64,000 bases of DNA from a virus (lineage: Duplodnaviria; Caudoviricetes): IMG/VR virus record IMGVR_UViG_3300028888_000055; one strand, given 5' to 3'. The first letter of the stretch is position 1, and the number at the start of each line of letters is the position of its first letter. The position numbers and the translations under genes were made by a program. The notes under the pieces were generated by a model that was given only the letters and a program-made list of their open reading frames with translations, had not been told where the DNA came from and made no database searches. Positions 1 through 64,000 of this stretch are shown here, one piece after another.

Positions 1-1
1 G

Positions 2-421
2 CAATCCATCGTAATTGAGTTGATAAAAAGTAATATGTTGGAGCCTGATATTGCTACGGAGGCGATTACAAGTAGAAGTCTTACAGAGCTTAAAGATATA
101 GTGAACAAAGCTTGGGCTAAAAAGAAAGAAGAGAATAATCAAATAGCTTAGCTTGGACAGCAGTTAGAAGAAGCACAAAAGCAAATAAATCAACTAACAC
201 AATAGAACCAATAGTTGCAAGCTAAAGTAAGTAATTTTGAAGAAGAAAGGCTTAAGATTGAAAGAGAACGTATGCAAATAGACTCTCAAATACGATGGTT
301 CCAGGCTCAAACTGAAAGATCTTACAAGAATGATTCTATTGAGGTTAACCGTCAAAAGGTTCAAATTGAATTAGAACAGCTTAATGATGGTAATCCTTAT
401 AACGACGAAGTTAAGTACTAA
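2..421 (+). CDS. Portal protein, C-terminal part (5' truncated by window)
   Basis: Open from base 2 with 3 TAG read as Q: ...KKKEENNQIAQLGQQLEEAQKQINQLTQQNQQLQAKV...ELEQLNDGNPYNDEVKY-TAA. Q-rich coiled coil resembling the C-terminal barrel of crAss portals; lies upstream of the capsid module. Confidence 0.65.
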
Positions 422-4079: not shown

Positions 4080-7000
4080 ATGAGTAATTACGAAGTCGAT
4101 CCTAATATTAAATAGATATTAGATTTAAAAATCAATAAAGGAGTGTTTCCCCTTACAGTAGATAGTGCTGTAATAGCACATTCTCCTAATGGGGAAACCA
4201 CTTACTTAGATTCTGTTGTAGATTACCTATATCAATAGGTAGCTAATAAATTAAGATTATATACAGAGTAGGATGGAGCTTATACAAAAGGAAAAGCTTA
4301 TCCTGCTACTATGGGCGTACAAAATGCTAATAATATTAACGCTTTATAGGGTACTGTAAATAATTATGCTTCTATATTATCTGCGTTACAACAGCAAATT
4401 AATAATATGGACCCTACAGATGATATTACATCTATAAACAATACTATATAGAGATTGTGGGGTATCCTTAATAGTTTATCGGAAGCTTCTGAATATTCAT
4501 ATCAAGAAATTAAATTTTCTGACTCTTAGACTGTACCTCCTAGTGACCTTGATAACACCACTTATTGGAAGGCTAGACCACTAGATAATCCTCAACACTT
4601 GTGGTTAGGAATTAGAACAATAACAATTACAAGAGGAGAAGACGGTAGGCCTATAATAACTAAAGGAGATACTATGGTAGTATCCCTTCAAGGCCCTAAA
4701 GGAGAAAGAGGTGAAAAAGGAGAAAGAGGTGCAGATGGTAGTAAAGGTAGTACAGGAATTCCAGGAAAATCTTATAAACCTGTATTAATGTATAAATGGA
4801 CTGAATCTAGAACTTCTGCTCCAGCTACACCTACTGATCCAAGAAATTAGGGATGGACTGAAAGCCCTAACAATCCAGTAGGAGAAAACAAGTATCTTTG
4901 GATGACATAGAATCATCTAGATGTAAGTAACAATACTTATGTCAATCCTACTTGGTCAACACCTGTTTGTCTAAGTGGAGAAGATGGTGTAGGTTCAGAT
5001 GGAAAGGGAGTCGAATTTATTTATTTCTTGTCTAGTAGTCAAAATATTCCTTCTGTAGAAAGTTTAAATCGTTATTATAATAATGAAGATCCTAGATTTC
5101 AGCAGGATGATTTCCCATTTGGTGAAGATGGAGTTCCAATAGTTCCTACTGATGGATGGACTGACAACCCATCTGGAATTACCTAGGAATATCAATATGA
5201 ATATGCTTCTTTTAGAGAAGGTAGTGCTGGAAATTGGAAACCATTTAGTGCTCCATTTTTATGGTCAAGATGGGGAGAAAATGGTATTGATGGAGACGGC
5301 GTAGAATATATTTATTTTACAACAACAGGAGAAAAAGAATGGCCTGAAAGTGTTTCATACACTGATCCAATGAGTGAAGACCCAAGAGCTTGGACTAATT
5401 TAGATAGATTTCAAGAGGATGATTTTATCCCAACAGAGTAGTAGGATGAATGGTTTGATGAGCCTCAAGAATTAGACCCTATTTATACTCATCAGTATGT
5501 ATCCATGCGTAAGAAAACTAAAGTTGGTAAAGCTAAAAAATGGGGAGCATATACAATGCCTAAATTATGGAATGTATATTCTGGAACTGGGGATAGATAT
5601 GTAATGCTATATCAATGGACGGATACTAGAGAGGCTCCAGCGGCTCCTACTACAGGGAACTTAGGAAATTGGACAGAATCCCCAGGTAATGCTGATAATT
5701 AGTATTTATGGATGGTTGGAGGCTATGCTCGAGCAGAAGATAATTATGATTCAGGGTATATTACTGTATCTCAATGGTCATCTCCCGTATGTTTATCTGG
5801 TAATGACGGCGTAGGTACAGATGGTACTGGAATTGAATTTATATTCTTTAGAACTGATGATATTAACACATCACCAAGTGTAGCTGAAATGAATGCTTAT
5901 AAAGATGGCTCTGAACAATAGCAACAATGGTTCCAATATGAAGACTTCCCATTTATTGATGGAGATAATATATTTCATAATGGTTGGACAGATAATCCGC
6001 AAGGTATTACTCAAGACCAAAAGTATGAATGGGCTTCATTTAGACAAAGCAGTGGAGGGAGATGGGATTATTTCTGCACTCCATTCCGTTGGTCTATGTG
6101 GGGAGAAGATGGAGTAGATGGTGATGGAGTTGAATATATTTATTATCGCTGTAATAATGGTAATAGATGGACAGGTGTGACTCAAAGTGAGGATCCTGTT
6201 TAGCCTAAAGCACAGCCAAGTGATTCAAATTTTCAAAGTGATGATCCTGCCGATCCTAGAACGTGGTCAAATGATCCAGATTTTCAAAACCTAGAATTTA
6301 TTAAAGACGGTTAGGAATGGGATGGCTAGCCTAATACTCTTGGATGGAGTGATGATCCAAGAGGGGTAACAGAAAATAATATGTATGAGTATGTAAGTTC
6401 CCGTAAAAAAGAGCCAGATCCAAGTAATCCTCGTAAAAAAATCTGGGGAGAATATTCTCAACCAGTATTATGGGCTAAATTTGGAAAGAATGGACGTGAT
6501 GGTTAGGACGGACAGGCAGCTTCGCAAGGCTTAAGTGGTCCAGTTGTTCGATTTAGAGGAGCATATGATTCAAATATTCCTAGTACAGATAATCCCTATA
6601 TAAATTCTTCTTTAAATACAGTTCTTCCACCTACTGCTATTCGTTATATAGATGTAGTATATGTTGATGCTAATGGTCAAAAAACCTATTACATGGTAAG
6701 ACCTCAATAGGATGGAACGCGACATCCTACTACTGCTCCTACAAATACAGAAGATTGGGAAGAAGCTGTTGGATATTCATTTATTGCTGCGGAAGCCTTA
6801 TATGCACACAATGCACATATAGACAATTTATCAGGTTATGAATTTGTAGTACAAGACAATATTGATAACAATTATATTGTTGCTGGTATGACTGGAGGTA
6901 ATGTAGTAAATTCTGTTGTTAACAGTAATTACTAGGACAATCCTGTAAGAATTTGGGCAGGATCTCGTGCAAGGGAAGATATCGATTTGCAAGGGGAAAA

Positions 7001-8237
7001 TATTCCATTTAAAGTATTCCAAGACGGTAAGTTAAAAGCTACTAATGCAGAAATTAAGGGTGATTTATCATTAGATTCTTTGTCCCTTACAGGGAATGAG
7101 GGCTCTTATTATTATAATAAAGAGTCAATAACATTACCACAAGTTGATACCGATAAACATACAGTTATTTTTATAATAACTACATTTAATGCCACCAAAG
7201 TAAGTCCTCATTCTGGAGATGTTTTATTTGCTCTTTCTAATAATAATATTACAACAACTAACTCGGAAGTTAGTTTAAATAAATATAAAATATATTTAGC
7301 TATTAGTATTAAAGATGGGGCGAATTCAGGATGGCTTATTTAGGATCTTAACTCTATAGAGATACCTTCACAAACCTATTATTACTCAAAAGATATAATA
7401 AATAGAAATGAAGGAGAAGCCCTGCCTTCATGGACAGTAGTTGCTGACAGTCATGATGATCAAGCATTTATTCCACTAGAAGGGACTAATCAGTAGCTTT
7501 GTACATTTTCTACTTCTACTGATATTGCTTCTACTTCAATAACAGATACTCGTAAATTTACTATATCAGGAAGTTTATTATTTTCAGTACCTGGTAGAAA
7601 TGATCTTAGTGCTAGAATAACATTGAAAGAAGTCGATATAACAGACCTTGATAGTACTTTTACTGACACACACTTAAATTAGGATGGTTCTATTAACGGA
7701 AAAATTACAGTACGAAATATTATTAATATTTACTTGTAGAACATGAATTAGTTAGTTCTTGATACTGGAGGCTAGATTACTAAATAGGATTCAACAATAT
7801 GGATAAAGCCAACTTTATTTAGTATAGGAGAATCTACTTCAGTGACTGTTAGACCTTCTATAATGTTAGTAGAATCTTTTCATTATACATCTTCTACAAA
7901 TCATGTTGCCCCAACAACGACTAATACAGTTAGTTCTAATGGATTTGTCATAAAAGATGGCAGCATAGTAGCAACTGATATGCCTGAGGGGGCTACTGTA
8001 AATATGAAAGATTGTATCGTTTATAAAGATGTAACTGGAACAGCTGCTTAGGAACAATATGAAGTAGTTAACTTTGGAGCTTCTAATGTAACTATTGGAA
8101 ATATAACAGTAAATCCTAATGAACCAACAATAATAAAAGCTAAACCTAATGTGCATATAGATTTTTCTGATATTACAGCAATAGATGCTTCAGGTATTAT
8201 AGATCCTGCAGAACAAGGAGATCCAGTTAATCATTAA
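4080..8237 (+). CDS. Large tail fibre protein with collagen-like segment and duplicated Trp/Pro-rich modules (1385 aa)
   Basis: Track ORFs 4599, 5505, 5712, 6987 and 7842 are all in one frame. GPKGERGEKGERGADG collagen stretch; repeated WTD/ExP...W..P..W...GEDGVDGDGVEYIY modules; TAA at 8235-8237. Confidence 0.8.
4770..6490 (+). repeat. Intragenic tandem duplication (about 825-bp unit, two diverged copies)
   Basis: LMYKWTESRTSAPATPT / MLYQWTDTREAPAAPTT; WSTPVCLSGEDGVGSDG / WSSPVCLSGNDGVGTDG; WTDNPSGIT / WTDNPQGIT; WGENGIDGDGVEYIY / WGEDGVDGDGVEYIY. Confidence 0.8.
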
Positions 8238-9374: not shown

Positions 9375-11555
9375 ATGAATACAAACAACGCTGTACAATT
9401 ACAAGATAAGATAGATGGACACGACATTTATCCTAGAACATTAGCATCTTTGGTACAAACCTCTGATGGTTCAAATATCGAAGATGGAAAAGCTAATAAG
9501 AGTGATGTTTATACTAAAAATTAGGTAAATGCACTTTTAGAAGATAAATAGAATACCTTAGTAAGTGGTTCTAATATTAAAACAATAAATGGACAATCCA
9601 TATTAGGAGATGGCAATATTACTGTGGCTGCAGATTCGGATAAAATAAAGCAACCTTATGCTACAGAAGATACAAATTATAGAATATTATTAAATGGAGA
9701 ACCCAATAATTATGATGATACTAAGCAATCTGTAGCTCAAGCTTCTGATGTTAGTATTAATCCTGTTTTAAGATAGACAACTTTTTATTCAAATAAAGAC
9801 TAGCGTTCGTATCCTATTAAAATTACAGACGGAAAAATAACTTTTGGAGATCCCGCTAATTATATAGATGAAGATAATTACACTGGAACTGCTGATAAAG
9901 CAACTAAGGATGCTTCTGGAAATGTAATTTCTGAAACTTATATGACTAAACGCGCCGCACAAGAAGAGTTAGCTGAAAAATAGGATATTTTAGAAAGTGG
10001 TATTAATATTAAAACTGTTAATAATCAGTCATTACTTGGCAGAGGAAATGTTGTAATTGATTCTGCCCCCGATTTAAGTAATTATTATACTAAAGATGAA
10101 GTAGATAGATCCTTAAGAGGAAAACAGAATACTTTAACTTTTGATGAAACTCCACAAAGAAACAGTCCTAATGTTGTAAAGAGTGGAGGCGTTGAAAGTG
10201 CTTTAGCAGCAAAACAAAACGTTCTTGTTAGTGGCTAGTCTATCAAGACTATTAATGGAGAATCTATTTTAGGAAGTGGCAATATTGATACTTAGGTTAT
10301 ACAAAATCTAAATAATCAAAGTACTCCAAGACATTTCTTAATGAGTACAGTAGCTCATAGCGGTGATGCGGGTGATACCGATTATTCTGATGAAGTAGCA
10401 TTTACTCCTACTACAAGAATTTTTACAATTATTACAACTAAAGATCCTGATAGTGAGACACCAATTTCTTATCCTGTAAATATAGAAAACGGTGGTATGA
10501 CTTTCGGATACTTAGGTAATGAGGGACATATTGATGCTGAAGAATATACTGGTAGAGCTTTAGGTTCTGAAACTCAAATTATGGAAACTCTAGCAGTTGC
10601 CGACATGGAAAATGTTGGATTAAATGACGGTGCTGCCAAGATTGGATTTTATAATGATGATACTGATGAAAATATTACAGTAAGAGAAGGTATTCTTAGT
10701 AAATAGGATAAATTAGTTAGTGGCACTAATATAAAAACAATCAATAATTCTTCCATTTTGGGAAGTGGTAATTTAGCCTTAGCAGGTTTAGATGAAGCTA
10801 CAAGCAAATCTATCATTTATAAGGCTTTAAAGCAAGGAGAAGAACAAATGCTAGTACTAAAATCTATGGGAAATTTAGATATTATACCTTTAGATTCTAG
10901 TTTAGAGCAATTTGATTTAAATGAAGATGGTACTATCAACTATTCCGAAATTTCAATAATATATGCTATATTATTAGGTCGACCATACGATGGTTTCTAT
11001 TATAAAGTAACCCATCAAACTGAAGGAGATCCAACTTCTCCATTACTTTTACAAAAGTCTGAAGATAATAGAACTTGGACAACTGTAGTAGGCAAAAATC
11101 CAGACATAGTTGATAACGACGGTGCAGTGACAGCGGCTGAAGTTAGTGAGCTTTATAATATAATAGAAACTGTATCTACTCAACAGGGAATTGCCTATGA
11201 TCGTTCGGAATTTACTGGAAGCACTACTGTATTTTCCGCATATGATTCAAAAGAAAAGAAAATTATAATAGGCTATAATTTTGAAAGATATATTGATCCT
11301 ACATATGATAGGGATACTTATACCTTATTAAAATTAGATCCAAGTCCTAATGTTATATATTGTAACTCTTTCAATAATAAGTTATATCGTTGGAATAAAA
11401 ATTCTGAAACAATGGTAGAAATTAACTTAGCTGTACCCACAGAATTAAATAATCTTTTAACTCGCGTAGAACAAGTAGAAAGATAGATAGAAAACTATGA
11501 AGGAACAGTAAGTAGTGACGATCCTACTACTCCTGTAGGCCCATCTAAGCAGTAA
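9375..11555 (+). CDS. Fibre protein with four KQxxLxSGxNIKTIN repeats and a dockerin-like EF-hand pair (726 aa)
   Basis: Track ORFs 10341 and 10758 are in frame with ATG 9375. Repeats at about 9546, 9978, 10212 and 10701; TAA at 11553-11555. Confidence 0.8.
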
Positions 11556-14150: not shown

Positions 14151-14159
14151 TCACATAAT

Positions 14160-14205
14160 ATTAATAATTGGGGAATACTAAATTTCCCCAATTATTAATT
14201 TTTTT
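14160..14205 (+). terminator. Intrinsic terminator after MCP
   Basis: attaataattggggaa-tactaaat-ttccccaattattaat followed by a T run. Confidence 0.8.
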
Positions 14206-14218
14206 AAACTTGAATTAT

Positions 14219-14539
14219 ATGGCAAAATTAAATAAAGGGTTTTTCCTAAAAATCCCTTATGGTAATTAGACATATAAGGGACAGAGTGCTGCAGATGTAA
14301 GTGAACTTATTCAACTTATAGAAGATTTGCAAGAAGAATTAGCAGATTTAAAGACAAAAGCTGAAAATTTAGCAGATCAAGTTGAAGCACAAGAAGATAC
14401 AATCAATAACATTGTAACAGCTATAGATGCAGACGAAAATGGAGATTTAGGAGATGTTAAAAAGATATTTGATTTTCTTGATACAAATAAAGATAAAGAC
14501 TTAGCTCAAAACGACAGAGTCGGTTGGGTAGAGGATTAA
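14219..14539 (+). CDS. Small coiled-coil structural protein (106 aa)
   Basis: ATG 14219, single TAG at codon 17, in frame with track ORF 14327; ends VGWVED-TAA. Confidence 0.7.
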
Positions 14540-14576
14540 AAAACTTTTATATTAACTTTTTAATTTTTTAAATTTT

Positions 14577-15878: not shown

Positions 15879-15898
15879 TCCAATTTTACAATATAAAA

Positions 15899-15930
15899 AA
15901 TAAGGGGGAATTATACTCCCCCTTATTATT
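15899..15930 (+). terminator. Hairpin terminator
   Basis: aataaggggga-attatac-tcccccttatt. Confidence 0.7.
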
Positions 15931-15955
15931 ATTAATCTTTTAATTTAAATTTACA

Positions 15956-17275: not shown

Positions 17276-17317
17276 TAATATATAGGAAAAAAGTAAAGAC
17301 TAAATAAAATAAAACTA

Positions 17318-17698: not shown

Positions 17699-17718
17699 TA
17701 TATAAACTTTTTTGAATT

Positions 17719-20702: not shown

Positions 20703-20704
20703 TA

Positions 20705-21646: not shown

Positions 21647-21660
21647 TAATTATTTATATT

Positions 21661-48300: not shown

Positions 48301-51300
48301 TACAATAGAGAGCAAGAGAGCTTATTAAATATGCCAATCCATTTAGCGAATTACGCAGATTCGTTTTATAGGGAGCTGGAAAAATTTCACAACATTCTCA
48401 CGTAAACGATCCTGCAGTAACTGCTGCTTTTGAATAGGGTAATCCAAATATAGATATCCAAAGAGGGGCTGGTAATAATCCATATTATGACCAAGCTATC
48501 AAGATTATGGATACCTTTATATAGAATCTTTAGTATCTTATAGGTGATGGTGGCAGAGTAGACGAAGAAGTTGCAAATTCTATACGTGATATAAAGAATG
48601 AATTAATAAAAATTGAAGGTAATTTGTTGTTGCAAGACGTCATCATGGGAGATGATTTTATTCAGAATTCAGATGCAAGTTTTGCATTATTCGATAAGTT
48701 CTTTACTGGTTTAACTTTAGATAATTTAAACGATAGATACCAGGATTTACGTTAGCATTACAATGAAATATTAGCAGAAGCTTAGCAAGATGACCCAGCT
48801 TCGGTTGCTGCTGTACAAGCTTTATTACAAGAATTTGATGATAGAATTAGTCGTTTTACACAAGCTAATGCTGACTTAATTTAGAAAAATACTACTATAA
48901 ATGGTCTATTGGCACAACAAATAGATAATCCTATCTTTAAAGTTTTAAATGAATTAGCTATTACTACTACTGGAAATCCAAGAAGTGTTATAGCATTATT
49001 AAGGGAAATTGAGTAGCAGTTCATCTTAAAAACAAAAGATGGTGATATTAGTAAATTCCTTCTTGATGGTACTATTACAAGAGATGATATAAAAAATGCC
49101 GAAACTTTAATTACTCAAGTTTAGGCGATGATTAGAGCTGCGCAGGTTGATAAATTATATAAAGAAAATCCTTTTAGTTTCAATTCATCTATGAATGCAA
49201 TAGGTGGAGACGAGAAATTAGGAGAAATTGACCATATTACAGCTTCTTTACTTATCAGTGACCTTGAAGCCTTTAAACGTAAATTAAACTTTGTTAAGAG
49301 CTTACATGATATTAATGATAAGGCTTCTTTAAAAGAACATACTGAAGTAGGAGTTAATTTAAATTACCTTGCTTATGATTTAATAGGTAATCCTGACAGT
49401 GAATTATATAAAACTATTTCTGTAAATGGAGCGGGCGAGAGAGTAATTAAGGATAAAGTTGTTAATGGTCAAGCTATTCTAGAAAAAGGATCTGAGTTAG
49501 ATAAGGCTATAACAGCTGCTGAAACTTTAAAAAAATATACAGAAGATCCTAAAAGACCTACTAATATTCCATTAGAAGATCAAATAGCTATAGCAAAAGA
49601 AAAACTCAACATTGAAAATGCATTATACGATAGAGTTTAGGAACTTATTAATTCTGGTAATACTGCAGAAGAACGAGAGCAGATTAAAGAAGAATTAATA
49701 TCAGTATTATTCTCTAAATATATTTCTAACGCTGAAAATATTGGTATAAATAACTAGCCAATTAAAAAGGATTCTACTACAATGGGCGACAGTGTAGAAT
49801 TATCCTATTTAACTTCTATTATAGCATATAAGTCTGGCGATTTCTTATACAAATACCATGCTCTTCTAGAGAAAAAGAATTCAAATTTAGCACCACTTCC
49901 CGCACAAACTTTGAGTGTCCAAATCTGTTATGCAATGACACAGAATAAGGACTTATTTAATTCTGTATTAAAAGCATTAAATGTAGAAGATTATGGCAGA
50001 ACTCCTATGGATAGTTTTATAATGGTAGCAGGTATTCCTGGCGCAGGTAAAACTTCAGCGGTATCTAAAATGGTATACGATATGGCTAAAGCAGATAATC
50101 CTAAAGTCAGAACTATGACTGTTGGACCTACTAATACTCAAGTGCAAAACTTAGTTAAAGCTTTAAATCCTTCTACTAAACGCAATAATCCATTTACAAA
50201 GGATGAACTGCTAGAATTCTTAGGAACAAACGAAGAAGCCATAAATGCTTCTGATGCTATGGAATTCACAGACTTTGATGACGGTAGAATCTATTATCGC
50301 CTTAAATAGGAGATTATAGATGGCCTAGATACAAGTGTTAAGCCAGATATAATCTTTATCGACGAGTCTACCATCTTTACAAATGCTGAATTACAATTGA
50401 TTAAAGGCTATGCTAACAGAGTAGGAGCAGTTGTAATAATAACAGGTGACTTACAACAGAGTGCTAGAAGAATGTTCTGGAATCATAATAATAACAACGA
50501 TGAAACTAGAACATTGTATAATTCAATTACTACTTGTGTTCCTTTCTGTGCTCCTCCGCTTAGTGTATCTATGAGAGCTTCTAATTCAAATAAAAGAGAT
50601 AATACCAATGCTACTAGCGAGTTAGCATAGAATTTTACAATGCAAAGTATAAGAGATCGCAATTTTTCTGGTACTACAGAAGTATTAGATTATATTAGAG
50701 ATCTTTTATCTAAGGCTAAAATTAAAGGTTCAATAGATCCTACAGGAGCAATAAAAGGTGACTTGCTTTATGATAAACCTGATTTAACTACCCCAGAAGG
50801 TAGAAGTGCATTCAAAAAGCAAGTATAGCAAATGATTGATACTTTGGCTGAAGGGGAAAAGATAGGCTGCATTTATGAAGATGAGTCTTCTGAAATCTAT
50901 AAGTTCTTAACTGAAAACTTCAGTGCCGATAAAATCGAAATGATTAATAAACTTGAGTTTTATTCTGAAGCTAAAGCTCAAGGTAGCGAACATCAATATT
51001 TTATAATTGATGTAAACTGGGATGGAAAGTATTAGAATTTACTAAGTAATACCAACTTAACCCCTGAAATAATAAATGATATATTATCATTTATACAATC
51101 ATTACATACAACTATTTCTCGTTCTAAATAGGGATCTGTCATTATAGATAATGGCTTAACTAACTTATTAGGATTGGATGTATTCACAACCATAGATTAT
51201 AACCAAGTAAATGAAGTTAGACCTTCTGAGGAAATGCTAGAGTTATATAGAAATGAACAAACTGCTATATTTGAAGCTGTATTAAGTGGCTATACTCCAA

Positions 51301-54300
51301 CTGATCCTACAGCAGTAGCGGCTGCTACAGAAGGTGCAACAGAAGGAGAAGGAGAAGAAGGCGGTGAAGAAGGCGAAGGTGAAGGTGAAGAAGGTGAAGG
51401 CGAAGAAAACGATGACAATGATGATGGTGGTGAAGAAGACGACGGTGAAGGGGAACAAGATGTAGATTTAGTTCCTATCAGTGAAATGAAGGTACCATTT
51501 AAGAATAAAGTAGTAGTAGTATTAAAGTTAAAGAAAGACCAAATTGACTATGTACTAGAAAATGGATACCTTATTAAATCTGATCCAGTTGTTGTAACTA
51601 ATAAAACTACCTTAAAAACCGCTGTATAGAATATTAGAAATGATTTGATTGCAGGAGTAGCTGTTATACCCGCTGGAACAGAATTAGCTACAAAGATTTA
51701 GAACGGTGAGAATGATATAAGTATTCCTGCTGAATATATATATCCTAAATTTACTAAAGACGTAGTAAAGAAATCTAAAGGCAAATCTAAAACTCCTAGT
51801 ACAAAAAATAAAAATACTAAATTTGATGTAGGGGATATTATTACGATTAAACAATAGAAAGGTAAAAAAGCTTCTACTATTTAGTATAAAATATAGGATA
51901 TATCATCTAAGAAAATATTTAGTAAGAAAACAAAACGTTGGTCTACTAAACAAGTATATAAGTTACAACAAGTAGGTAAACCTGCTAATGTAAAAGAATG
52001 GACTGCGGATTTTGTAGATAGTAATTATAAGAAAGTAAAAAGTGCAACTGCTTCTAAAACTACTAAAAAGCAAGTATCTACTTTAGAGAAGATAATGGCG
52101 AGAGAAATTAAACCTGCAACTACAGGAGATACTGCTCCAGTATCTGATACTGAGTTATAGAATATTCTTAATTATGCTGATAACTAGGTAATGGGAGTTA
52201 AGTTATATTCTGGTTTATGTTTCAGAAGCGGTATAGGATTTAATGTTAATCCTAATACTGATACCTTTACTTTGACTTAGCTTGGCCCATTAGGAAGAGA
52301 TGAAGAAAATCTTTCTGATTTAAGTGGTCTTATATTGCCTTTCTTAAGCATAGTGGATACTAGTGGTAACCCATTACAGTATGACCATACTACAATGTCT
52401 GCTGTAACATCAGGAAATGATTTAGTAATATTATAGAAGGGTACGAGCAATGTTATTGGTAAAGTAAATAATCCAACTTTGCCTGTTAAATTGTTAAGTG
52501 AACTTGAAGTTACTCAAGCAAATCTCAGGTCATTATTAATGTTTAATAATGGAGATTTAAAAGAATTGCATAAAGATATCTATGGAGAGGTCTATAATCT
52601 ATATGCTAATAATTCAGCATTACTACAAACTACTAAAGATTTAACTAAGATACCTTTATTACAGAGGTTATTTTAGTTATCTAAAAATGCAGGTCCAGGA
52701 TAGTTTACTTTCAAATTAAAAATATTTAATAAAGATAACTTTGAGCCAGCCGTTGACAAAGTATTAAGAATGGGCAACTCTGCAGTTCCTAATTCTAAAT
52801 TATTAGTATATTCTATAGAAGGATGTATGGAAATAACTATGGGCGTATTTCCAAATCCTACAACTGTAGAGGCTTATGTATCTAACTTAGAAAAGATATA
52901 TAGGTCAATGAAAACAGAAGATAAAAATAAAGCACGCTTAAGTAAAGCAATAGCTTAGTTAAGGAATACTTTAACTGTAGTTTATTCTATAAATTCCAAA
53001 TCCAATAGTTTACAACAAACTACATACTGGGATTTAGGAGAATTTAACTTGGCCGAACATCGTGTAACTAATACAAAGAGAAGCCCAATTTAGTTTGCTT
53101 TAGGAAATGGAGAAACTCAAATGGATTTTGCTCAATTTAAGGAAGATCCAGATATTATTTGCTCTGATCCTTTCCTATTTACAGACGCTTATAAAAATGC
53201 TGGTTTAGTTGATCCTTCAACTGCAGGTAAAGCTGTTGTATTCTATACTACAGATTTAAATCTTTACTATGGTTTTGAGAACGGTAAATTAACAGTTGCA
53301 AATAGTAAAAAGAATGATTCATTTAAGAAGATAACTAAATCTAATAGTAATGAATTATACTCTTTATGGGCTACTGTTAGAGAATAGGCTGTTGCTTCAG
53401 GTAATATGGATGATTTAAATGCTTTAGGAGACAAAATTACAATGGTTGTTTTATCTCCAAAAGGCGTATCCTTAGAAGAATTCGTAACTCAAGCTATTAA
53501 ATTAAAAGAATCTATGAGAAATGGTGTAAAATATATTACTCCTGCGGGAAATATAAACACCTATACTAGAATTATAGAATTCTTAATTAATACTAATATA
53601 GAAGTAAAGAAATTCTTAGCCAAAATAAATAAGGATGGTGGGAAATCTTCTTATTCTTATGGCACATTATTTAGTGTTAATGGAACAAATGCAACTATTA
53701 ATTTCAACACTGTAGACGAAGTTAAATAGTTCCACGACGACTTAACATAGATGCTTTCTGGTATATTTACAACCATAGATTCTAATATTAATCTAGCTGA
53801 TTATGGTATTGGTAAATCTACATCTACTAAGAAATTAGAGAGTGCTTTAGGAAAACTATTAGTTGAAGTTATCGGAGACCAAGACTTAATAAAGGAATTT
53901 ATTGATAGTGGTAGAGTTGGGTATTCAGCTAAAGGTACTGGAAATACCATAAAAACAACTTTTAGTGGATCACATTGGTATGAAGTATTCTCTTCTATAG
54001 TTAGCTACTTTACAAATAATGTAAATGTTGATGATACTGAAATTGCTGAAAATAGAAAAGATTTCTTAAGTAAGTTAGAAGCTTTACGACAAGTGGACGC
54101 CATTGATAAAGAAAATCCATTAAAATTTGGAATCTTCTATAATCCAAGGTTTAAACCAAATCCTAATTTTAACCCTTCTAAAAAGGAAATGGCTTATCCA
54201 GCAATAGATCTCGAAGACCATTTCTATGTTTCAGTTGTACCTCAAACTCCTGACTTTGTATTACCCTTAGCAACACTAAGTAAAGTAAGTAGTACTTCAA

Positions 54301-55367
54301 GTTCGGATAATGTAGGCGCTACTGCTGCTCCAACTTCGGTAGCAAAAGCAGTGGCGGCTGCTCCTGCTGCACCTGCTTCAACTTCGGAAGCTGAAAAAAA
54401 ACTTGAAATATTTACTAGAGCTATTGATAAATACAAACCATTTTTAATTGATGTTTTAACTAACCCCACACAGAGAAATACTCCTCTTGATCCTACTTTA
54501 ATTCCACTTCTAGAACAAACCATAAATGATGTTATAGATTCAAAAAAAGAGCATTATATATAGATTTTAAAGACATCTACAGAGCATATTACATAGGATT
54601 TAAATACAAAAGGAGATAATTCTATATATGCAATAGAAGGAAAAATAACAGAAAAACTTCATGAATCACTAATATCATAGCTACTTATAGATATTATTAC
54701 AGAAGCCAATAATAGAATTCCAGACTTAAATATTTCTACTGTTGTGGTGGGTAATTAGGATGACGGCATTAGTACTCTTGAAAACGAGTTACATTCTAGA
54801 AAAAATTATAAAAATACTGATTTCAATAATCCATTAGCTGAAACATAGTTAGTTAAGGATGGTAAAGATTATTTCTTATATTATAAAGAAGACGGAATAG
54901 CTTACAGAGTTAAAATAACTATGTAGGACGGCTATGTACGAGATGTCAGAAGAAAAGTTATAAGTGCATCAGAATTTCCAGGGGCAGCTCCAACCGTAGA
55001 GCCAGAACAAAAATCTGATTCTTTAGAATTAATTCCTAAAATAATAGATAGCATTAATTCTGTTGAACCTCAAAGAGAAGGAGGAATACCAGAAGAAATG
55101 TTAAATATATTTAATGGAATTAAACAAAGTCTAGTAGAAGCTGTTACAGATTCAATCACTAGTGATCCTGAAGTCTTAAATGCAGCCGTATAGAAGTGGC
55201 AACTTGGTATGAGTATGTTAGAAAATCTAAAGAATATGTATTAGATAACTTCTAATTTAGAGGCTGTTATAGCTGAGCATATGAAAGAATTAAATTCGCA
55301 ACAAACTTCAGAAGACATTTGCGTAGATGCTCAAAACTTAGTAATTTTGTTGAATAAAATAATTTAA
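45396..55367 (+). CDS. Giant virion cargo protein containing an SF1 helicase-like P-loop domain (3323 aa)
   Basis: 17 track ORFs from 45717 to 53751 share this frame; the larger gaps were translated by hand and contain only TAG. AEGVEEVSEE motif; GIPGAGKTS, IFIDES, GDLQQ, AQGSE, TTISRS. Confidence 0.82.
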
Positions 55368-55380: not shown

Positions 55381-58300
55381 ATGAACGGACAATGTAGTTT
55401 AAATGATTCAAATATATATGCACTCTTAAATAAGTTATTAGTCCCAGGTAGAAACCTAGACAATACCTATAAAGAAATAGGTAAGACTTTAGTAGAAGCA
55501 GGATATGACTTATCTGAAGATAACAGAGAACATTTGGCAGAAGCAATGCTTACTTGGAGGAATAGTAATCTTCCAATAGCATTGTTTTCTCCTGGTTCTG
55601 AAAATCAAATATATCTAAGTGCATTAGCTGCTGATAGTAAAGAGTTGTAGTATGCTTTAACTTCTATTATTCATTGGAATGGAGATACTAAACCAGAAGA
55701 TACTAAATAGATGGATATAGTTGATTAGGATAATAACGACAATGACACTGTTGATATTACTACTCGTATTAAGGAAAATCAATTAGACGATATTTACTAG
55801 CAGGCAGCAGAAGCTAAAACTTTAATGTAGCAATCTTTTAAAAGAAATATTGTTAGTTCCTTATTAGTAAATTTTAAAATAGGCCAAATTCCAACAACTG
55901 CTGAACAAGTTAACAACAACATTGCTTCTTATAAAGAAGAATTGGTTAATACTATTGTTGATTATGCTAATACTTATGCAGAAAGGAATCTTGCTGTTTA
56001 GATGTATAACGAAGATGGTACTTTAAATATTAGCGGATATAGAACAGTTGAAGAATTAGCAAAGCATCTTTTTGAAAATACTACAGATATCGAACTTATC
56101 GATGCTTTTAAAATGCGAAATGATTCTCCAAAGTCTAGAGCATTTCTCGACGCTTTTAACGCTTGGATAATTCTAAATAACTTTGATATGCTATTGAAAG
56201 CAGAATTAAAGGATTCTGTCAACATTAAGAAAAGTCTTTTAGATGCTCAAGTAGATAAAGATGTTGTAAAATATTAGCTTGTAGATGAATCTGAATTAGT
56301 AAAAACTTGGAGAAATTCAGAGGATGTAAATGCTTTAAAAGAACTTGGTAATATAACTACATTGCTTATTTCTTCTACTCCCATGTATGATTACAATAAG
56401 GGTAAACCTTATTTACAACCTGGGAAGTATATAGACCCAAATGTCTTTTTCTTTGCATTTGCTGATATATTAAGAATACCAGCTATTAAGAGGATTTCTG
56501 AAAACAAACGCTATAATTCTTTGGAAATTATTCCTCAAATTATAGATGCTGTTTTAGCTACACCTTCTTTGGGACCTAATACTAATCTGATACACAGTAT
56601 AATGTATTCTGTTCAGTAGCACTTCTTTAGAACTTCTGGTAGAGGAGCCGACCAGGACTATTCTCTAGCAGAAATTATACTTAAGGATCAGAATTCGGAA
56701 GGTTATTCTGTAAATAAAAATTATTTGAATTATGTTGCATCTGCTATAGATAAAACCATACGAAATCTATACTTAACCTATAATTCAAATAGAGAAACTG
56801 GAGTAATTGAAACTAGAGTTTCTACGGATGTATCAGCTTCTAATAGCGAATTTGATATTAGAAATTCTATTGAGAGCCCAAATAAGATGCTCCTTCCTTC
56901 TTAGAGAGACCAGTTAATAAATACATATGTTCTTAACAATAAAGAATACTATGATACTTTATCTGAAGAAGAGCAAGAAAAAATTGGATATGACCCACAA
57001 TTGAGTTCATATCCAAGTTTATGGTCTATATCTACCGCTATTACTATGGGAGGGGCTCCTGCTAAATTAATAATACGCGTATTTAATGATATTACTTCTG
57101 ATAGTGGTCAAAATAATAAATCAATTCATTCTATAAGTATAGAAGATGAAAATGGAAACGTATCTACTATATTTAATAATAAAGATGGTTTTCTTCCAGA
57201 GACTCCAGAGGCAATACTACAAAATGTAGAATCTGTCATAATGGATATGATAGATGATACATTAAAGCAGAACTTCAAGACTAATCCTGAGTTCTTTAAT
57301 GCTTACATGTAGAATCTTCCTAATAAGGAAAATGGGCAACAGTAGTCGCATTTAGAGGGCTTATTATACTTAATTCCAATGGCTAATAGAGTATTAATTA
57401 AACATACTTTAGAAGCCAAGAATTTAGCAGAAAATACTTCATTATTAGACAAAGTATATAGAATCGATCCTATCTATAAATTTTAGAATGGAAAACAGAA
57501 ACCCTATTTATCCCTTTAGAAACGATTAAAAGTAATAATGGATACAAAGGGTGATAAGACTGTTGTAAAATTCTTAGGAAATGCTAAGATGGTAATTACG
57601 GGAGAAATTGCAAAGTCTACATCTAAGAATATTGAAGGTAATACTGTTTCTAACAATGGTTTAACTAACCTTATGAGTACTGTCGCTTTAGTATTTGAAG
57701 ACTCTAGAAAGAGATTAGCTACAGAGCAAGACGACAGTATGGAAGATCCTCACTACCGTAATTCTTGTTTACGAAATTGTGTTTTTGTATTACATCCTGA
57801 ATTTTTGCATGGAGTAGTGCAGAAACAAGGAGCTAAAAGTAAAGACGGATTATCTAGTAAATTAGATAAGAAATTTAATGTTGCAGAATCCCTAGAAAGC
57901 GCAATAAAATTTGATTTCTTAATTAACTATGGTTTAGATCCATCTAACTCTTAGCAAGGTATAATCAGAATTCAGCCTACGGATTATTCTGATAAGACTA
58001 CTGATTATCTTCTTGAATTAAATGGAAACATTCCAATTGCAAATAATAAAAGTTTAGTTGGAATGTCTTGTGCCGAAGTAGAAGAATTGCACAGGGTTCA
58101 AATGGATAGTATGTATAGTACTATGCGTAACAACATAGGAAAAGACTACCATGATACATTATTTACTTTTGTATTAGCTAATGCTGATATATTGGGGTTA
58201 AATCCATAGTATTTAATGCAATTGGATCAACGAGGCGACTATTCTACATATTATACTTTTTATACATAGGTAGTATTTAAAGCTATTAATGATAATATTA

Positions 58301-61300
58301 ACAATTTACAAGTAGACGGCAAAACTTATACTGACCCAAGGAAGTTATATAGAGATTTAGCCAGAATAAATAATACTACAGTAATTACTAATGTACATTT
58401 TGATGATAAGGCTAAAGTCTTAACTACTAATAATATTATTGATTATTATTTCCGTGTATTTGGGAATAAGGGAATATATGATTATGTTCTTAAGAGAAAT
58501 CAATTGCGCTTTATCAAGGACGTTTCTTCTTATGTTAATTTTAGATGGTCTACTCAAAAAGGCATTGACCCTATCTTGGAAAATGCTGTAAAGAGACTAG
58601 TAAGTAATGGTACTATCGGCGATGAAGAAATGTTCATACGTAATTGGGTAGACCACAGGACTGGCGATCTCGTATTAGCTAAACTAAATACAGACGAAGG
58701 GTCTATATCTTTGACTAAAACCGACTTAAAGAAATTAAAACTTTCTGATCTAATTTATGGCGATAATTTTGGATTTGAATTAAATCCAATTCTTAGAGCT
58801 TTTTTTGCTATTGATACAATGGTATCACAGCAGTTTATTAGTTCTACTGTTGGAGGTAACTTCGTACATAAAAATAACTTTGGAAAAAATCCTGACGTCA
58901 ATCCTTTATGGGAAAATGTAAAATTATTCGAGGAAGGTACTGAAGAATTTAATATTGCTTTAAATGAGTACTTAGATGCGGTAGAAGTAGAAGATGCGGG
59001 TAGACTGTTAACTCAGTATAAACGTATGGTTATTTATCCTGCAACTATGCACCCATTATACCAAATGGCATTAGAAGGCGTTCCCACATATTATAATATA
59101 GCAAGTATAGATGATGTTCAAGCTAATACTTGGGATTATATTAGTGGAGATTATGATAGTGACGGGAAACAAAAGACTATAGATGCTCATGACGGTTCTG
59201 GTATGGTAGATCCTGGATTTGCTATCCTTGAGAATGGATCATTACAAGGTGCTCACGTAGGTATTGATAAAAAACCTATTGGACACAGTATGGATGATTC
59301 ATATATGGTTGAAACGGAGCTAAAATACGCCTTATTCGCGATTACTAATTGGAAGGTTAGGAATTCTAGTAATAGAGTAGGGGAACATTATGGTATTAAT
59401 TATGACCTTATTCGTAGAAAGATGGGTAGCTCTGAATATGGACGAGGATGGCCCGCTGATTTGGATATAGACATTACCACTAAATTTAATGGCGAGAAAA
59501 TTGATTTGGATGACTTACAATCTACATACTTCTATGATCCTAAGCTTGACAGTTATTTCCAAATTGTAGGAATACAAAAATTACCTGATGTTAAGAATGG
59601 TTATATATTTACATACTAGCAAGTAGATGAATTTGCAAAACCTATAGGAAAGCCAATAGAAGCAGCATAGCCACTTATAATTGATAGCAATTATTCATTG
59701 TGGAAAGCTTTAGGTGGCGAATGGTCTTGCTCGATTTATGATGGTAAACTCGTAGAAGATGAATCATCTAACTATAATTGGGCTTACTTTGCAAACAATA
59801 TAGGATTTATAAGAACAAAACAAAATCCTATAGCTATGCATGAGATAGATTATACTGAAAATGATTTACTTGATGAAAGTGATATTACTACCGATGATAA
59901 TGGTAAAAAATCCTTCCCAGTAGTTTTAACTTAGAAGGATATATATCAACCTCTTAAATATTCAGGAATACAATATGCAGTAAATGTATCTGGTATTAAG
60001 AATGGTCAAGTGAACACAAATCCAGTACAATCTCATTATGACCAGAATCCTTTAAGGAGTTTCCGTATTTTGACTAAACATCTTGGAGTCCAAATGAATG
60101 CCGATCACCATGCTGATGATGCAGAACTTACTGAGATGTCTCAGGTAATTTCTGCTTTGGAAGCTAACGGTTGGGCCCATGATCTAGTTAAATAGATTTA
60201 CGAAGACCTGGGAAGTATAGTATTGTAGACCTTAGAACAAGAAATTAAAGCTCTGAAAGTTTTCTTAAAGACAGGTGACAATACAGAAATATATCGAATT
60301 GTAGGTAAATCCTTTATAAAATCCTTTGGTAAGGATGGAGGGCAAGATACTCTTACTGCTAGTATGATGAATAATATCATCAAGGAATTAAACGGAGAAG
60401 ACAATATAGAAAATATTGAATAGAAATTGCCTTTCAGTGACACTTCTGTATTATCCTCTGTAGTTGGTAGTATTACTTCTAACATCAATAAGACAGCTAT
60501 TAAAAGAAAATATTCTGGTTTGGCTGCCGTCCTTGTACCTGCATATGATATTATCAAAGTTTATAAACAAAGACTAGAGGATGGTTCAACGAAAGATGCT
60601 CTTAATGGTGACATCCTAAAAGCCGATACTGATCTAGAAGCTCAAACAGACACAGGCGATTTAATGTCAGCTAAGAACCTAGAATTAGGATTATCTTATA
60701 TAGTATATGAAAATCTTGCACTAGACCCACAGCCATTAAAGAAAGTCACAATTGACGGTAAAGAGTACTATGTAGGGCATGATGAAAATAGTATATTAGT
60801 TTTATTTGATAAATATGGCGCAGTTCAAAACATTCATATGCCTTATTGGGTGCAAGAACAATATGCTGCTGGACAATTACCTAATTTAACTGTTACATTG
60901 GATACAATTAACGACTATAAGAAGTTTAAGCGTTCCCAATTATAGTTTAAAGAGGATTATGCAGCAGGTAGAAATCTATAGCCATCTAAAACTAGTTTCT
61001 AGGTTAGAGAAGAAGAAGGCACTATATACAATATATTTGACGTTGATGAAATCGAACAAAAAATAAAATTTAGAGAATTTTATGATGCATTTAAAAAGAT
61101 TCCTGTAATGAATTACAAGAATTTCTTTAATAAAAATGATGCTTTGTTCGATATAATCAATAGAAATCCAAATCCTAGAATAGTATCTATATACACTAAA
61201 ATTAGAAATTTAACATCTAAAGACGTATTAACTACTAATGATGATGTAATGATTTAGAAGTATATGGATATATTAGAAGTGGAGTTTGCTAATTAGGTAG

Positions 61301-64000
61301 TAATGGCTTTCCAAAACTTGCACGAATAGCATATAGTGCATATGGGAGGAGAAACATTTAATGTCATTCCAGAAACAGTCGAAGTTAAACCTGCTGAGTT
61401 AGTTGTATCTAAAATATATGCAACTAAATTTGGAATAAAAAAGGGCGATAACTTAAATACTATTGATCTTTAGTATTTCATCGACCAACAAAAAGAAAAC
61501 TTCGTACCTAAAACGGAATTATATGATATAATGCTCCGCAGAGATAATGGAAGACATACTTATGTCCTATTGAGTAAACATAAAGACGAGTTATTAAATA
61601 AGCATTTTGTAAAAGTAAATCCACCTACTCGCGTAGACTCTATTACTGGCGATGTAATAAGGTTAAACGAATTAGAAGAGGATATGATGCCATTTAATAA
61701 CTGTGAATTATATGTTAAAGACGGAATAGAAGTAATTGTAACAGATGATCCTGCTGATTTAGTAGACGATGCTTTTGAGTATTCTTCATATGATATAAAC
61801 CCATCTAGTAAATTTGGATTAGAGGACTTAAAAATATTCGATACAATTCCTCTGAAGAGAATAGCACTAGAGCAGAGAGAAAATTATATTAATAATTTAG
61901 CTCAGAAAAAGTGGACTTCTTTTTAGCAGTCATTAGAATTTATAGCTGCTCGTATTCCTGCTCAGGCCTTGCAATCTTTTATGCCTATGAAGGTAGTAGG
62001 ATTCACTGATTCTGAAGAAAACAAAGCTTATGTTTCCCATTTTTAGACTTATCTCCAAGGTTCTGACTACGATATTGATAAAGTATATTTAATGGGTAAC
62101 GAGTTTACAGAATCTGGAATCTATATTGGCTGGAGTCCATTCTTTAACTTAAATAGTTTACAGAAGTTAAAGATTTCCCAGGAAATTCCTATGCCAAATG
62201 GTTTAGAATACTCGCTGGTTTCTAAGCAAGATGCTGCTGAAAATGTCTAGGATATAACAGAAGATATAATTAATCTTAAATTAGCAGAACTTAATTACGG
62301 ATAGGATAGTATTTAGTATTTAACTACAATTAAGAACCTTCTTGTTAAGATTTAGTAGAATAAAAATTCAGAATTAGCAGTAGATTATGCTTCATTAGCA
62401 GACACTTTCATAAAAGAAGGTATTGCTCATGATCCTACAGCGTCTTTACAGTTTGTTTAGGATGAATCTGAGAGAATACTTGATATGATTAATAGGCATT
62501 CTTCCTATTTTAAAACAGTTAAGAATAAGGATATGCGCTTAAAAATGACTAAGAATTCTGTCACATCCAAGATGTATAAAACTGCTAATCTTCCAGAAAA
62601 TACTTATGCTGCTTATAGTCCTATTGAGATGGGAGAAACTAGAGAAGCTGCCACTAAGTCTTAGATGGGTGAAGCTGAGAAAGATTACACTACCTTTAAT
62701 CCAGTGTCTAAGTTTATGATGCATTATCAAAACATGATGGGTAAAGATGGTATTGGTATATCGGCGGTAGGAGAAAAAGTATTATTCTGTTTGTAGTTCT
62801 ACTTTAACGAAGCTGCAAGACTAGATTCAAATTTAGACGATCTTAATTCTGACGAATTTAAATACTAGAGAAATGCATTCTTCCATAAGTAGCTGGATAT
62901 AATAGCTTCTGGTACGGATAGAATGACTGTAATTCGCAACCTTATTGCAAATATTAATTTGAGAAATAATGATCATATATGGGCTCAAATTATTAATTCT
63001 AATGTAGCTGAATTAGAGAGTTTAATGCAAACAAGCCAGGATAAAGAAAGGATTGCATTTTTACAAGATATGATATTGCTTCAATTAAATTATATGAAAG
63101 ACAGTTCTCTTGTAAATAGTTCTCTTCTTTCTGCGGCAACTGATAATGCTAAAGAGCTTATCCTTGCAAAAATTAATGCTAACCCTGATATGATGAAAGT
63201 TTATACCTATGGTATAATATTAGGAATTGACTTTACAGATATAGCAAACTTGATGACATCTCCTACTATAAATGCTGTTAATTAGTTAAGTGATGTTAAT
63301 ATATTTGAGAAGGATAGCTTAGTATCTGCCATTACATCTTCTTTAAATTCTCTTAAGAAGGGTATAAATCCAGGGGAATACCTTAATACTACTGATATAG
63401 AAATAATCGAAGACTTACTTTTTAAAGTACCAAACGGAGACTCTAGAAGACTAGATTTACAGGAGCTTATTCGTAAATCCAAAACATCTAGTGTAGAAGG
63501 ACATACTACATTTAAGCAAGATTTAGATAGCGTAAATAAGGGAGAAGTTAGTTGGGAGCAATTTGCAGCAAATTGGTCAGTTAAAATCTATAGCATCATT
63601 AAGCTAATGGACGGCTTAAGTGGTTCTAACCCTTCTCCAAGTATTCAATAGCTTTACAGATATTTATTTAAGATGCAAGAATGGTTAGATATCGTAAAGG
63701 ATATTGACTAGAGAACCCTTCTCACCTTTAAGGATATGTTAGATTCAGCAGAAGAATTTGTTACTTTTGGTGCTATTTTGGGTATTAATTAGGGCATTAG
63801 AACTGATGTTGATGGTAAACTAGCATATTTAAATAGAATAGAGAATGTATTTAAAAATAGATTCGATAAAGGAGCTTCTACAAATGTAAGTGATATTCTA
63901 GCTGCTAAACCTTATTATGTAAAATTCTATGGCGGAGAGCAAGAGGCTAGAAATTACATAGAAGCTACTGTTAAGAAGGCGGATTCTTTAGGAATCTATA
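55381..64000 (+). CDS. Virion-packaged single-chain RNA polymerase (crAss-like, >2870 aa, 3' truncated)
   Basis: All + track ORFs from 55381 to 62923 are in one frame. ARIPAQALQS, catalytic GSDYDIDK (DYDID at 62065-62079), DAHDG and SAATDNAK motifs match the two-barrel RNAP of phi14:2/crAss-like phages. Confidence 0.9.

Follow-up and report, generated by a model that had tools for sequence, protein, structure and literature searches.

TAG as a glutamine codon in the late genes of a ruminant-gut crAss-like phage

TAG is a sense codon that stands for glutamine (Gln) in the 64-kb stretch of DNA analysed here (the window), which we are highly confident is the late gene block of a large ruminant-gut crAss-like phage, encoding virion, lysis and giant injected proteins and using UAA or, rarely, UGA as stops. 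The TAG-to-Gln recoding is real and is a new case of an already well-described phenomenon; the original prediction rightly noted that such recoding is known from crAss-like phages, and the pattern described in Yutin et al. 2021 (PMC7886860) and Borges et al. (10.1101/2021.08.26.457843) matches. For annotation, the consequence is that table 11 breaks the 35 late genes into approximately 60 fragments and loses the giant proteins (over 3,000 aa), which are restored when TAG is read as Gln. The phage adds a ruminant-gut lineage to the TAG-recoding crAss-like phages. It also has a useful set of close relatives for studying the origin of code changes, some standard-code and some recoded, among which the capsid tree shows at least three switches. 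No new question is opened, given that the phenomenon, the late-gene bias and the suppressor tRNAs have all been published.

Gene content of the window

With TAG as a sense codon, and only then, 35 co-directed genes on the + strand tile 98% of the window (Table 1), and those that do not overlap are separated by gaps of 2–206 bases. The DNA is AT-rich (GC = 32.8%), and the 35 gene frames hold 291 TAG, 467 CAA and 133 CAG codons, which makes TAG 33% of the Gln codons in these late genes.

The capsid gene matches the Pfam family PF23898 (Crass_capsid) at 65.1 bits (cut-off 27; E = 5.4e-18), also matches the phrog_11589 major head protein and is about 22% identical to the capsid genes of cr115_1, cr4_1 and other named crAss-like phages. 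Both crAss_MUZ (101.7 bits) and CrAss_Ring_1 (29.9 bits) are likewise above the cut-off of 27, with CrAss_Ring_2 falling under it at 24.3 bits. Judged by sequence, the capsid, ring, muzzle and giant proteins are of crAss-like type. The giant ORF that runs past the window end contains a DYDID motif at 62065; DxDxD is used as a criterion for the giant virion RNA polymerase of crAss-like phages in Yutin et al. 2021 (PMC7886860), and the encoded protein is a candidate for this enzyme. The 1,611-aa protein is probably a cargo or ejection protein. A megablast search with 24 kb of the window against deposited phages returned a single weak match of 945 bases; relatives were gathered via the capsid protein.

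Table 1 Features of the window, with coordinates and the basis of each assignment
Feature	Position	Strand	Basis
Late/structural gene block	1..64000	+	ORF tables under alternative codes
Fibre-like protein, 1,385 aa, collagen-like stretch and internal duplicated unit, 27 TAG	4080..8237	+	
Tail-fibre-like protein, 726 aa, K-Q-D/N-x-L-V/E-S-G repeats	9375..11555	+	phrog_16348
Major capsid protein	12729..14150	+	Pfam Crass_capsid, phrog_11589
TAG-poor block, 11 genes including capsid	12729..23879	+	Codon counts
Fibre paralogue, K-Q-D/N-x-L-V/E-S-G repeat, Q = CAA at 16775 and 16958	15956..17275	+	
Fibre paralogue, K-Q-D/N-x-L-V/E-S-G repeat, Q = CAG at 19257, 0 TAG	19137..19820	+	
Endolysin, sole TAG at 19938 (codon 17)	19890..20702	+	PG_binding_1 and Amidase_2
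Two tail ring protein genes (CrAss_Ring_2, CrAss_Ring_1), 5 and 4 TAG	23952..25324	+	Pfam
1,189-aa protein, no known family matched, 26 TAG in 52 Gln codons	26309..29878	+	
Muzzle protein, 26 TAG	29898..34994	+	crAss_MUZ
1,611-aa protein, 23 TAG	38739..43574	+	
Giant protein, 3,323 aa, AAA_30 domain, 56 TAG	45396..55367	+	
Giant protein, >2,873 aa, runs past window end, 45 TAG	55381..63999	+	

TAG is a sense codon read as glutamine

We compared coding density between codes. Under table 11, ORFs of 100 aa or more cover 33.7 kb, the longest being 477 aa, compared with 66.1 kb and 3,328 aa when TAG is sense. As controls, treating TGA as sense yields 34.9 kb with a longest ORF of 477 aa, and treating TAA as sense 43.0 kb with one of 535 aa. 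The read-through signal greatly exceeds chance expectation and is specific to + strand TAG. The 35 gene frames contain 291 internal TAG and not one internal TAA or TGA, and the genes terminate at TAA (31) or TGA (3), the remaining gene leaving the window. The original prediction, which had the whole window recoded, holds up here: coding cover is restored only with TAG as sense, and every complete gene stops at TAA or TGA. Its statement that true gene ends are TAA or TGA stands as well, but not that they are often coupled as TAATG or ATGA, given that the 34 junctions contain only three TAATG overlaps and one ATGA overlap.

Whether the TAGs might be misread CAGs, which the original prediction had named as grounds for rejection, was checked on assembled contigs, in which stretches left uncovered by a run say nothing; the outcome favours the prediction. 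Exact-pattern scans matched the window start to a single separate contig of 4.4 kb (L001, 99.8% identity) and found the window end in neither the viral nor the metagenome contigs. L001 keeps 14 of 14 TAG, and an RNA library from another sample and study (run X2) yielded identical contig pieces with all 28 covered TAG retained; 28 of the 56 TAG in the giant gene at 45396..55367 lie within the X2 pieces listed, and none is changed. Systematic sequencing or assembly error, for which nothing speaks beyond the one-base distance between TAG and CAG, is vanishingly improbable, given that the TAGs recur in L001, X2 and a recoded relative (G001, 146 of 219), all of these being assembled contigs rather than raw reads.

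A true stop at TAG, with the window as a decaying or fragmented region of pseudogenes, would account for the short pieces (no more than 477 aa) into which table 11 splits the genes. This reading is already contradicted and exceedingly improbable: the frames are interrupted by TAG alone (291 compared with no TAA or TGA), tblastn matches against a standard-code relative continue in frame through 138 TAG sites, relatives keep the TAG positions or exchange them with Gln codons, and the same pattern is found in complete relatives with terminal repeats.

The identity of the residue can be read from homologues, close relatives and the window itself. At sites aligned with TAG, three standard-code relatives have Q at 36 of 138, 35 of 131 and 26 of 137 positions (26%, 27% and 19%) over a background of approximately 3.7% (binomial P = 3e-20, 2e-20 and 5e-12). 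Hence homologues do show a preference for Gln, the absence of which had been named as grounds for rejecting the assignment. The same relatives have Q at 26%, 33% and 28% of the sites where the window uses CAA or CAG. In the muzzle, 8 of 24 TAG sites aligned with a standard-code relative are Q. In the 87%-identical G001, the 219 aligned window TAG are matched by 146 TAG, 29 CAG, 19 CAA and 25 other codons, so that 48 of the 73 changed codons are CAG or CAA, and in the reverse direction 26 of 329 window CAA and 24 of 101 window CAG are TAG in G001. In a further recoded relative, MT835492.1, window TAG is most often opposite a stop symbol (11 of 82) and next most often opposite Q (8).

The evidence internal to the window, on which the original prediction had largely rested, proved accurate in every coordinate. 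A regular-expression scan finds seven K-Q-D/N-x-L-V/E-S-G repeats whose Q position is TAG three times, CAA three times and CAG once, and never another residue. In the tail-fibre-like gene this Q is TAG at 9549, 9981 and 10704 and CAA at 10215, and the Gln codons of the two paralogues fall at the same repeat position. TAG 5184 lies opposite CAA 6012 in the duplicated unit GWTDNP.GIT-Q of the fibre-like gene. TAG 19938, said to be the conserved Q of a peptidoglycan-binding motif, is within the PG_binding_1 domain of the endolysin, and with the query translated as TAG = X its column is Q in the five best PDB homologues (5/5). Paralogy, homologue columns, exchange between TAG and CAG or CAA and the PG_binding_1 column all agree on Gln.

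Another amino acid at TAG, for example Glu, Lys, Leu or pyrrolysine, is very unlikely. After Q, the residues most often seen at TAG-aligned columns are E, K, S and D, the isotype of a CUA tRNA is not readable from its sequence, and ARAGORN labels a CTA tRNA 'Pyl', although by convention. However, Q outscores every other residue in the three references, leading the next best by 41.5, 47.7 and 33.8 log-likelihood units (E by 41.5, 47.7 and 39.8, and K by at least 33.8), and the mix of residues found opposite TAG resembles that opposite the CAA and CAG sites of the window. The changed codons in G001 include 48 CAG or CAA compared with two AAG and at most one each of GAG and GAA, which are outside the eight commonest partners, and the paralogous repeat has Gln codons alone opposite TAG.

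Suppressor tRNA and uneven use of TAG

ARAGORN finds no tRNA in the 64-kb window and Rfam no family at gathering score, in line with the earlier statement that no suppressor tRNA is visible there. All three complete recoded relatives (G001, G002 and G003) encode a tRNA-CUA (anticodon CTA), in each case on the late strand, and the two standard-code relatives, with 34 and 22 tRNAs, have none. In the closest complete relative this tRNA lies on the late strand approximately 12.7 kb upstream of the point matching the window start. The isotype of this tRNA is assigned neither by nearest-neighbour identity nor by the 5' base: its nearest non-suppressor neighbours are a mixture of Gln, Met, Arg and Ala tRNAs at 67–73% identity, and its 5' U is common to three of four tRNA-Gln(ttg) and also to some Ile, Met, Pro and Trp tRNAs. 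Searches for a release factor (PF00472) and for GlnRS/GluRS (PF00749) found none in five relatives.

From the relatives we infer that a phage-encoded amber-suppressor tRNA(CUA) decodes UAG, and the literature suggests that host GlnRS probably charges it with Gln. Translation terminates at UAA and rarely at UGA, and UAG makes up about one-third of the Gln codons. It is also conceivable, if unlikely, that TAG means Gln in a phage without its own suppressor tRNA, through a host suppressor, a divergent undetected tRNA or other read-through. Consistent with this are the lack of a tRNA in the 64-kb window, the imperfect agreement between recoding and detectable suppressors described in Yutin et al. 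2021 (PMC7886860), and MT835492.1, which is recoded but has no tRNA-CUA among its five tRNAs by ARAGORN, so that a phage-borne suppressor is either not universal or not always detectable. Against it, 3 of 3 complete recoded relatives carry the tRNA, including G001 of the fully supported five-row clade of the window, and synteny would put the gene outside the window, by the distance given above.

The relatives with terminal repeats measure 160.7 kb (G001), 178.3 kb and 178.7 kb. The two of about 178 kb are rated 100% complete and have 23–35 tRNA matches per genome, compared with nine in G001. The G001 capsid gene is split by two inserts, the first with a 368-aa ORF without a Pfam match and one with a GIY-YIG/NUMOD1 endonuclease-like ORF. 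Runs X3 and X4 represent diverged relatives. The code changes on the capsid tree fall between close relatives. We considered one pair, L055 (recoded) and L009 (standard), as a snapshot of a recent switch and rejected it; the capsid C-termini are near-identical but the flanks are just 75–84% identical.

Recoding follows the late strand in G001 and MT835492.1, and across the complete relatives it is mostly a feature of that strand and not of the whole genome. The early/late split is not absolute, given that a few early-strand ORFs of G001 also have in-frame TAG. Since the standard code suffices to read the early genes, the late proteins would reach full length only when the suppressor is available; going by the literature, this dependence would act as a translational timing gate.

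Within the window, TAG is unevenly used. The block at 12729–23879 has 11 TAG compared with 107 CAA or CAG, and the rest of the window 280 compared with 493 (chi-square P = 1e-8), such that TAG makes up 9% of Gln codons in the capsid block and 36% elsewhere, including the giant and minor proteins. Eight of the 35 genes, including the one for the major capsid protein, lack TAG, and the capsid gene is also TAG-free in 10 of 14 recoded relatives. All ten Gln codons of the window's capsid gene are CAA or CAG (eight CAG), and its GC3 is 0.376 compared with approximately 0.2 elsewhere. This gene is uninterrupted. The endolysin, with one TAG in five Gln codons, is not TAG-enriched. Position within genes is uniform (KS P = 0.77), with no clustering near gene starts.

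The capsid-block proteins, the most abundant in the virion, avoid TAG, probably because suppression would have to compete with host release factor 1 and would be inefficient. We tentatively suggest, as a possibility well short of even odds, that TAG is sorted by gene and acts as a codon-level dial for the yield or timing of abundant virion proteins compared with suppressor-dependent ones. If true, the capsid, for example, could be produced ahead of the suppressor or without needing it, and such a gene-sorted dial would reach further than the published 'late-gene gate'.

Comparison with known systems

At UAG, the E. coli supE-type tRNA-Gln(CUA) competes with release factor 1 and inserts Gln. 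Read-through by supE is occasional, whereas UAG is here a regular codon (33% of late-gene Gln) and the tRNA is phage-borne in relatives.

With introns, many tRNAs and frequent code switches, the relatives of the window would fit the Zeta group. Yutin et al. 2021 (PMC7886860) give Zeta genomes a size of 145–192 kb and numerous introns and inteins, with the TAG and standard codes switching over short distances and no recoded stops in the capsid coding sequence. The size of about 178 kb and the 23–35 tRNA matches of two relatives, the capsid inserts of G001, the short-range switching of codes and the capsid gene free of TAG would be in keeping with Zeta, but unlike Zeta are the uninterrupted capsid gene of the window and G001, with 160.7 kb and nine tRNA matches.

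Late-gene TAG-to-Gln recoding ('code 15') is known in crAss-like phages from Yutin et al. 2021 (PMC7886860) and Borges et al. (10.1101/2021.08.26.457843), and for other crAss-like phages proteomic data reportedly confirm Gln at TAG (Peters et al. 2022, PMC9523058). Borges et al. (10.1101/2021.08.26.457843) report TAG-biased lysis genes, in contrast to the single TAG among five Gln codons in the endolysin here. Further differences are that the five relatives yielded no release-factor or synthetase gene and that the phage of the window comes from the ruminant rather than the human gut. Shared are in-frame TAG in structural, lysis and giant-protein genes, Gln at homologous positions, an AT-rich genome in which TAG is almost never a stop, code switches between close relatives and, in the relatives of the window, a suppressor tRNA(CUA) and early genes that fit the standard code. 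Compared with the code-15 crAss-like phages, there is no difference in kind.

Reading frames of the window

The window has a G+C content of 32.8%. Under the standard code (table 11), 62 stop-to-stop frames of 100 aa or more are found on its + strand; they cover 33.7 kb, with a longest frame of 477 aa. With TAG alone read as sense the count falls to 43 frames, the coverage rises to 66.1 kb and the longest frame grows to 3,328 aa. The gain was not comparable in the controls with TGA (34.9 kb, longest 477 aa) or TAA (43.0 kb, longest 535 aa) as sense, and the minus strand has almost no frames under either the standard or the TAG-sense reading. With TAG as Gln, 35 co-directed genes occupy 98.05% of the window, with either a small overlap or a gap of 2-206 bases between neighbours. 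These genes contain 291 in-frame TAG codons, and neither TAA nor TGA occurs inside any of them. Of the 34 complete genes, 31 stop at TAA, 3 at TGA and none at TAG. The original prediction also had gene ends often coupled as TAATG or ATGA. Such overlaps are present, but at 4 of 34 junctions 'often' was too generous. Two genes have their last TAG close to the TAA stop, 4 codons ahead of it in the gene at 29898-34994 and 6 codons ahead in the gene at 36132-37601; on sequence alone, the final residues of these two may or may not be translated.

Identity of the residue encoded by TAG

Glutamine had been proposed from paralogy within the window, and all nine site coordinates behind that proposal proved correct in the sequence. 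A pattern scan of the window found seven copies of the fibre repeat, in which the codon after lysine is TAG three times (9549, 9981 and 10704), CAA three times (10215, 16775 and 16958) and CAG once (19257), with no other residue in any copy. TAG 5184 and CAA 6012 do occupy equivalent places in the duplicated unit of a 1,385-aa fibre-like protein. TAG 19938, said to encode the conserved Q of a PG-binding motif, is codon 17 of the endolysin (PG_binding_1 and Amidase_2 domains); with this codon entered as X in a structure search, the column holds Q in 5/5 of the best-aligned PG-binding domains of solved structures.

Homologues outside the window give the same residue. By capsid protein, the nearest deposited phage is MT835470.1 (76% identity). 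It uses the standard code, and its late half is 84-100% covered by long ORFs already under table 11. Window genes were translated with X at each TAG and compared with it by tblastn, retaining matches at E < 1e-20. Q stands opposite 36 of the 138 aligned TAG sites (26.1%), against a background Q frequency of 3.8% (binomial P = 3e-20), and opposite 25.9% of 316 of the window's own CAA/CAG sites. The other partners at TAG sites are gaps (15), E (12), S and D (10 each), R (9), N and P (7 each), K and G (6 each), and others in smaller numbers. When a likelihood was computed for all 20 residues from their observed substitution profiles, Q came out best, with E next at 41.5 log units lower. Two standard-code relatives on other branches of the capsid tree agree: G005 has Q at 35/131 TAG sites (runner-up E at -47.7) and G006 at 26/137 (runner-up K at -33.8). 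A Gln preference at TAG-aligned columns was thus found in all three standard-code relatives, and the interpretation of TAG as Gln is supported. In G001 (L104), a complete recoded relative of 160.7 kb with approximately 87% nucleotide identity to the window, 219 window TAG codons align with TAG (146), CAG (29), CAA (19) or other codons (25); in reverse, G001 has TAG at 26 of 329 window CAA and 24 of 101 window CAG codons. Given this exchange in both directions, TAG drifts among Gln codons like the members of the pairs GAA/GAG and AAA/AAG.

A systematic assembly error at the TAG codons is opposed by independent contigs that retain them, a comparison made on contigs after assembly and not on raw reads. 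L001, another IMG/VR contig, matches window 1-2933 at 99.8% identity and has TAG at 14 of 14 codons. X2, a public run of a sheep-gut RNA library that belongs to a different study and sample, contains 77% of the sampled words of the gene at 45396-55367. Between the window and the eight contig pieces listed for this run there is 1 base difference in total (C>T); the pieces cover 28 of the 56 TAG codons of this gene, all 28 unchanged. Given possible DNA carry-over in the RNA library, we make no claim of transcription. Summed contig depth spikes at window 51057-51389 in three of four runs, up to 1,011 in X2, with none in X4, a run with diverged relatives. This region encodes a part of the 3,323-aa protein that is acidic and of low complexity (Gly/Glu/Asp), and the spike most likely stems from unrelated repeats of other organisms, not from the phage.

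Decoding of TAG

The original prediction saw no suppressor tRNA in the window, and scans of the 64 kb for tRNAs and Rfam families were indeed empty. A tRNA with anticodon CTA is present in all three complete recoded relatives examined (G001, G002 and G003). It lies on the late-gene strand, away from the main tRNA array, which is on the opposite strand; the four sequences share 69-83% mutual identity. No tRNA-CTA was found among the 34 and 22 tRNAs of two standard-code relatives. The window corresponds to G001 138724-160728 plus 1-44261, which places the expected suppressor approximately 12.7 kb before the first base of the window and accounts for none being seen within it.

Features of the window and tRNA-CTA genes of complete recoded relatives
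Feature	Sequence	Coordinates	Strand	Basis
crAss-type major capsid protein	window	12729-14150	+	Pfam
Tail ring proteins	window	23952-25324	+	Pfam
Muzzle protein	window	29898-34994	+	Pfam
Endolysin	window		+	Pfam
DUF192 protein	window		+	Pfam
AAA_30 domain within 3,323-aa protein	window		+	Pfam
tRNA-CTA	G001	126017-126091	late strand	
tRNA-CTA	G002	~169.9 kb	late strand	
tRNA-CTA, two copies	G003	1.8-2.0 kb	late strand	

The + strand genes of G001 carry 411 TAG versus 830 CAA/CAG, with at least one TAG in 48 of 59 genes. Its minus-strand ORFs, some of them spurious, carry 57 versus 498, and of the 87 minus-strand ORFs read under the standard code only 3 stop at TAG. The minus-strand ORFs at 83884-85215, 88828-89844 and 66459-68432 have 2-6 in-frame TAG each. 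Because a few early-strand ORFs contain in-frame TAG, recoding is not strictly confined to the late strand. In MT835492.1, a recoded GenBank relative (121.6 kb; L005-L007), the early half is standard and the late half opens up only when TAG is read as sense. ARAGORN found five tRNAs (Asn, Asp, Met, Tyr and Ala) and no tRNA-CUA in this genome. Neither a release-factor nor a GlnRS/GluRS gene was found in the five relatives searched, and the isotype of the tRNA-CUA is not readable from its sequence. Together with the early-strand TAG codons, these results speak against a simple decoding picture. The early/late split itself is a published pattern (Yutin 2021, PMC7886860; Borges preprint, 10.1101/2021.08.26.457843), and by the published logic late proteins would stay incomplete until the suppressor is made.

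Two further ARAGORN calls concern the same relatives. On the minus strand of G002 (L136), 8350-8422 is called as a tRNA with anticodon TTA (ochre-suppressor type) in a genome that uses TAA as its gene terminator. The anticodon may be mis-called, the gene may be an inactive copy, or it may be a pre-emergent suppressor such as Yutin et al. 2021 (PMC7886860) describe. A 'tmRNA' call at G001 114250-114584, adjoining tRNA-Leu(taa), is probably false.

Gene content, TAG use and phage group

The last ORF of the window exceeds 2,873 aa, continues past the window end and has a DYDID (DxDxD) motif at 62065-62079. Yutin et al. 2021 (PMC7886860) describe DxDxD as the signature of the crAss-like RNA polymerase, and by this motif the ORF is a candidate crAss-type virion RNA polymerase. 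On the Pfam gene set, the window is the late block of a crAss-like phage. Among 83 rows (the window, 80 IMG/VR loci and two GenBank phages), TAG is needed as sense around the capsid gene in 14 and not in 69. In a tree of the C-terminal part of the capsid protein, which fixes neither a root nor a direction of code change, the window falls in a five-row clade with full support whose members are all recoded; over the whole tree at least three code changes are required.

TAG makes up 32.7% of Gln codons in the window genes and is absent from 8 of the 35. The 11-gene block at 12729-23879, which begins with the capsid gene and includes the endolysin, has 11 TAG versus 107 CAA/CAG, and the remainder has 280 versus 493 (P = 1e-8). 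None of the ten Gln codons of the capsid gene is TAG and eight are CAG; its GC3 of 0.376 is the window maximum. Of the 14 recoded rows, 10 have a TAG-free capsid gene and 4 have one with 2-4 TAG; Yutin et al. 2021 (PMC7886860) describe a Zeta genome whose capsid gene is free of stops. We read the depletion as the most abundant proteins avoiding an inefficiently decoded codon. Along gene length TAG positions are uniform, with no bias (KS P = 0.77).

Two inserts that interrupt the G001 capsid gene (146968-148260 and 148552-149543, approximately 1.3 and 1.0 kb) are absent from the window, where the insert points match 12971/12972 and 13264/13269. The 237-aa ORF of the second, with a NUMOD1 match of 26.6 bits and a near-threshold GIY-YIG match, resembles a homing endonuclease of a group I intron. 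TAG occurs in both insert ORFs and in none of the G001 capsid exons.

Reading TAG as sense is of practical value for annotation; its scientific interest is modest. As the original prediction held, the phenomenon is not new, TAG recoding being well described (Yutin 2021, PMC7886860; Borges, 10.1101/2021.08.26.457843; Peters 2022, PMC9523058), and the window is a further case, with the observation confirmed and the interpretation supported. By the group description in Yutin et al. 2021 (PMC7886860), the relatives resemble the Zeta group and may belong to it: two have terminal repeats, genomes of 178 kb and 25-30 tRNA matches, the G001 capsid gene is split by two inserts, one with a GIY-YIG/NUMOD1-like ORF, and the code switches between close relatives.
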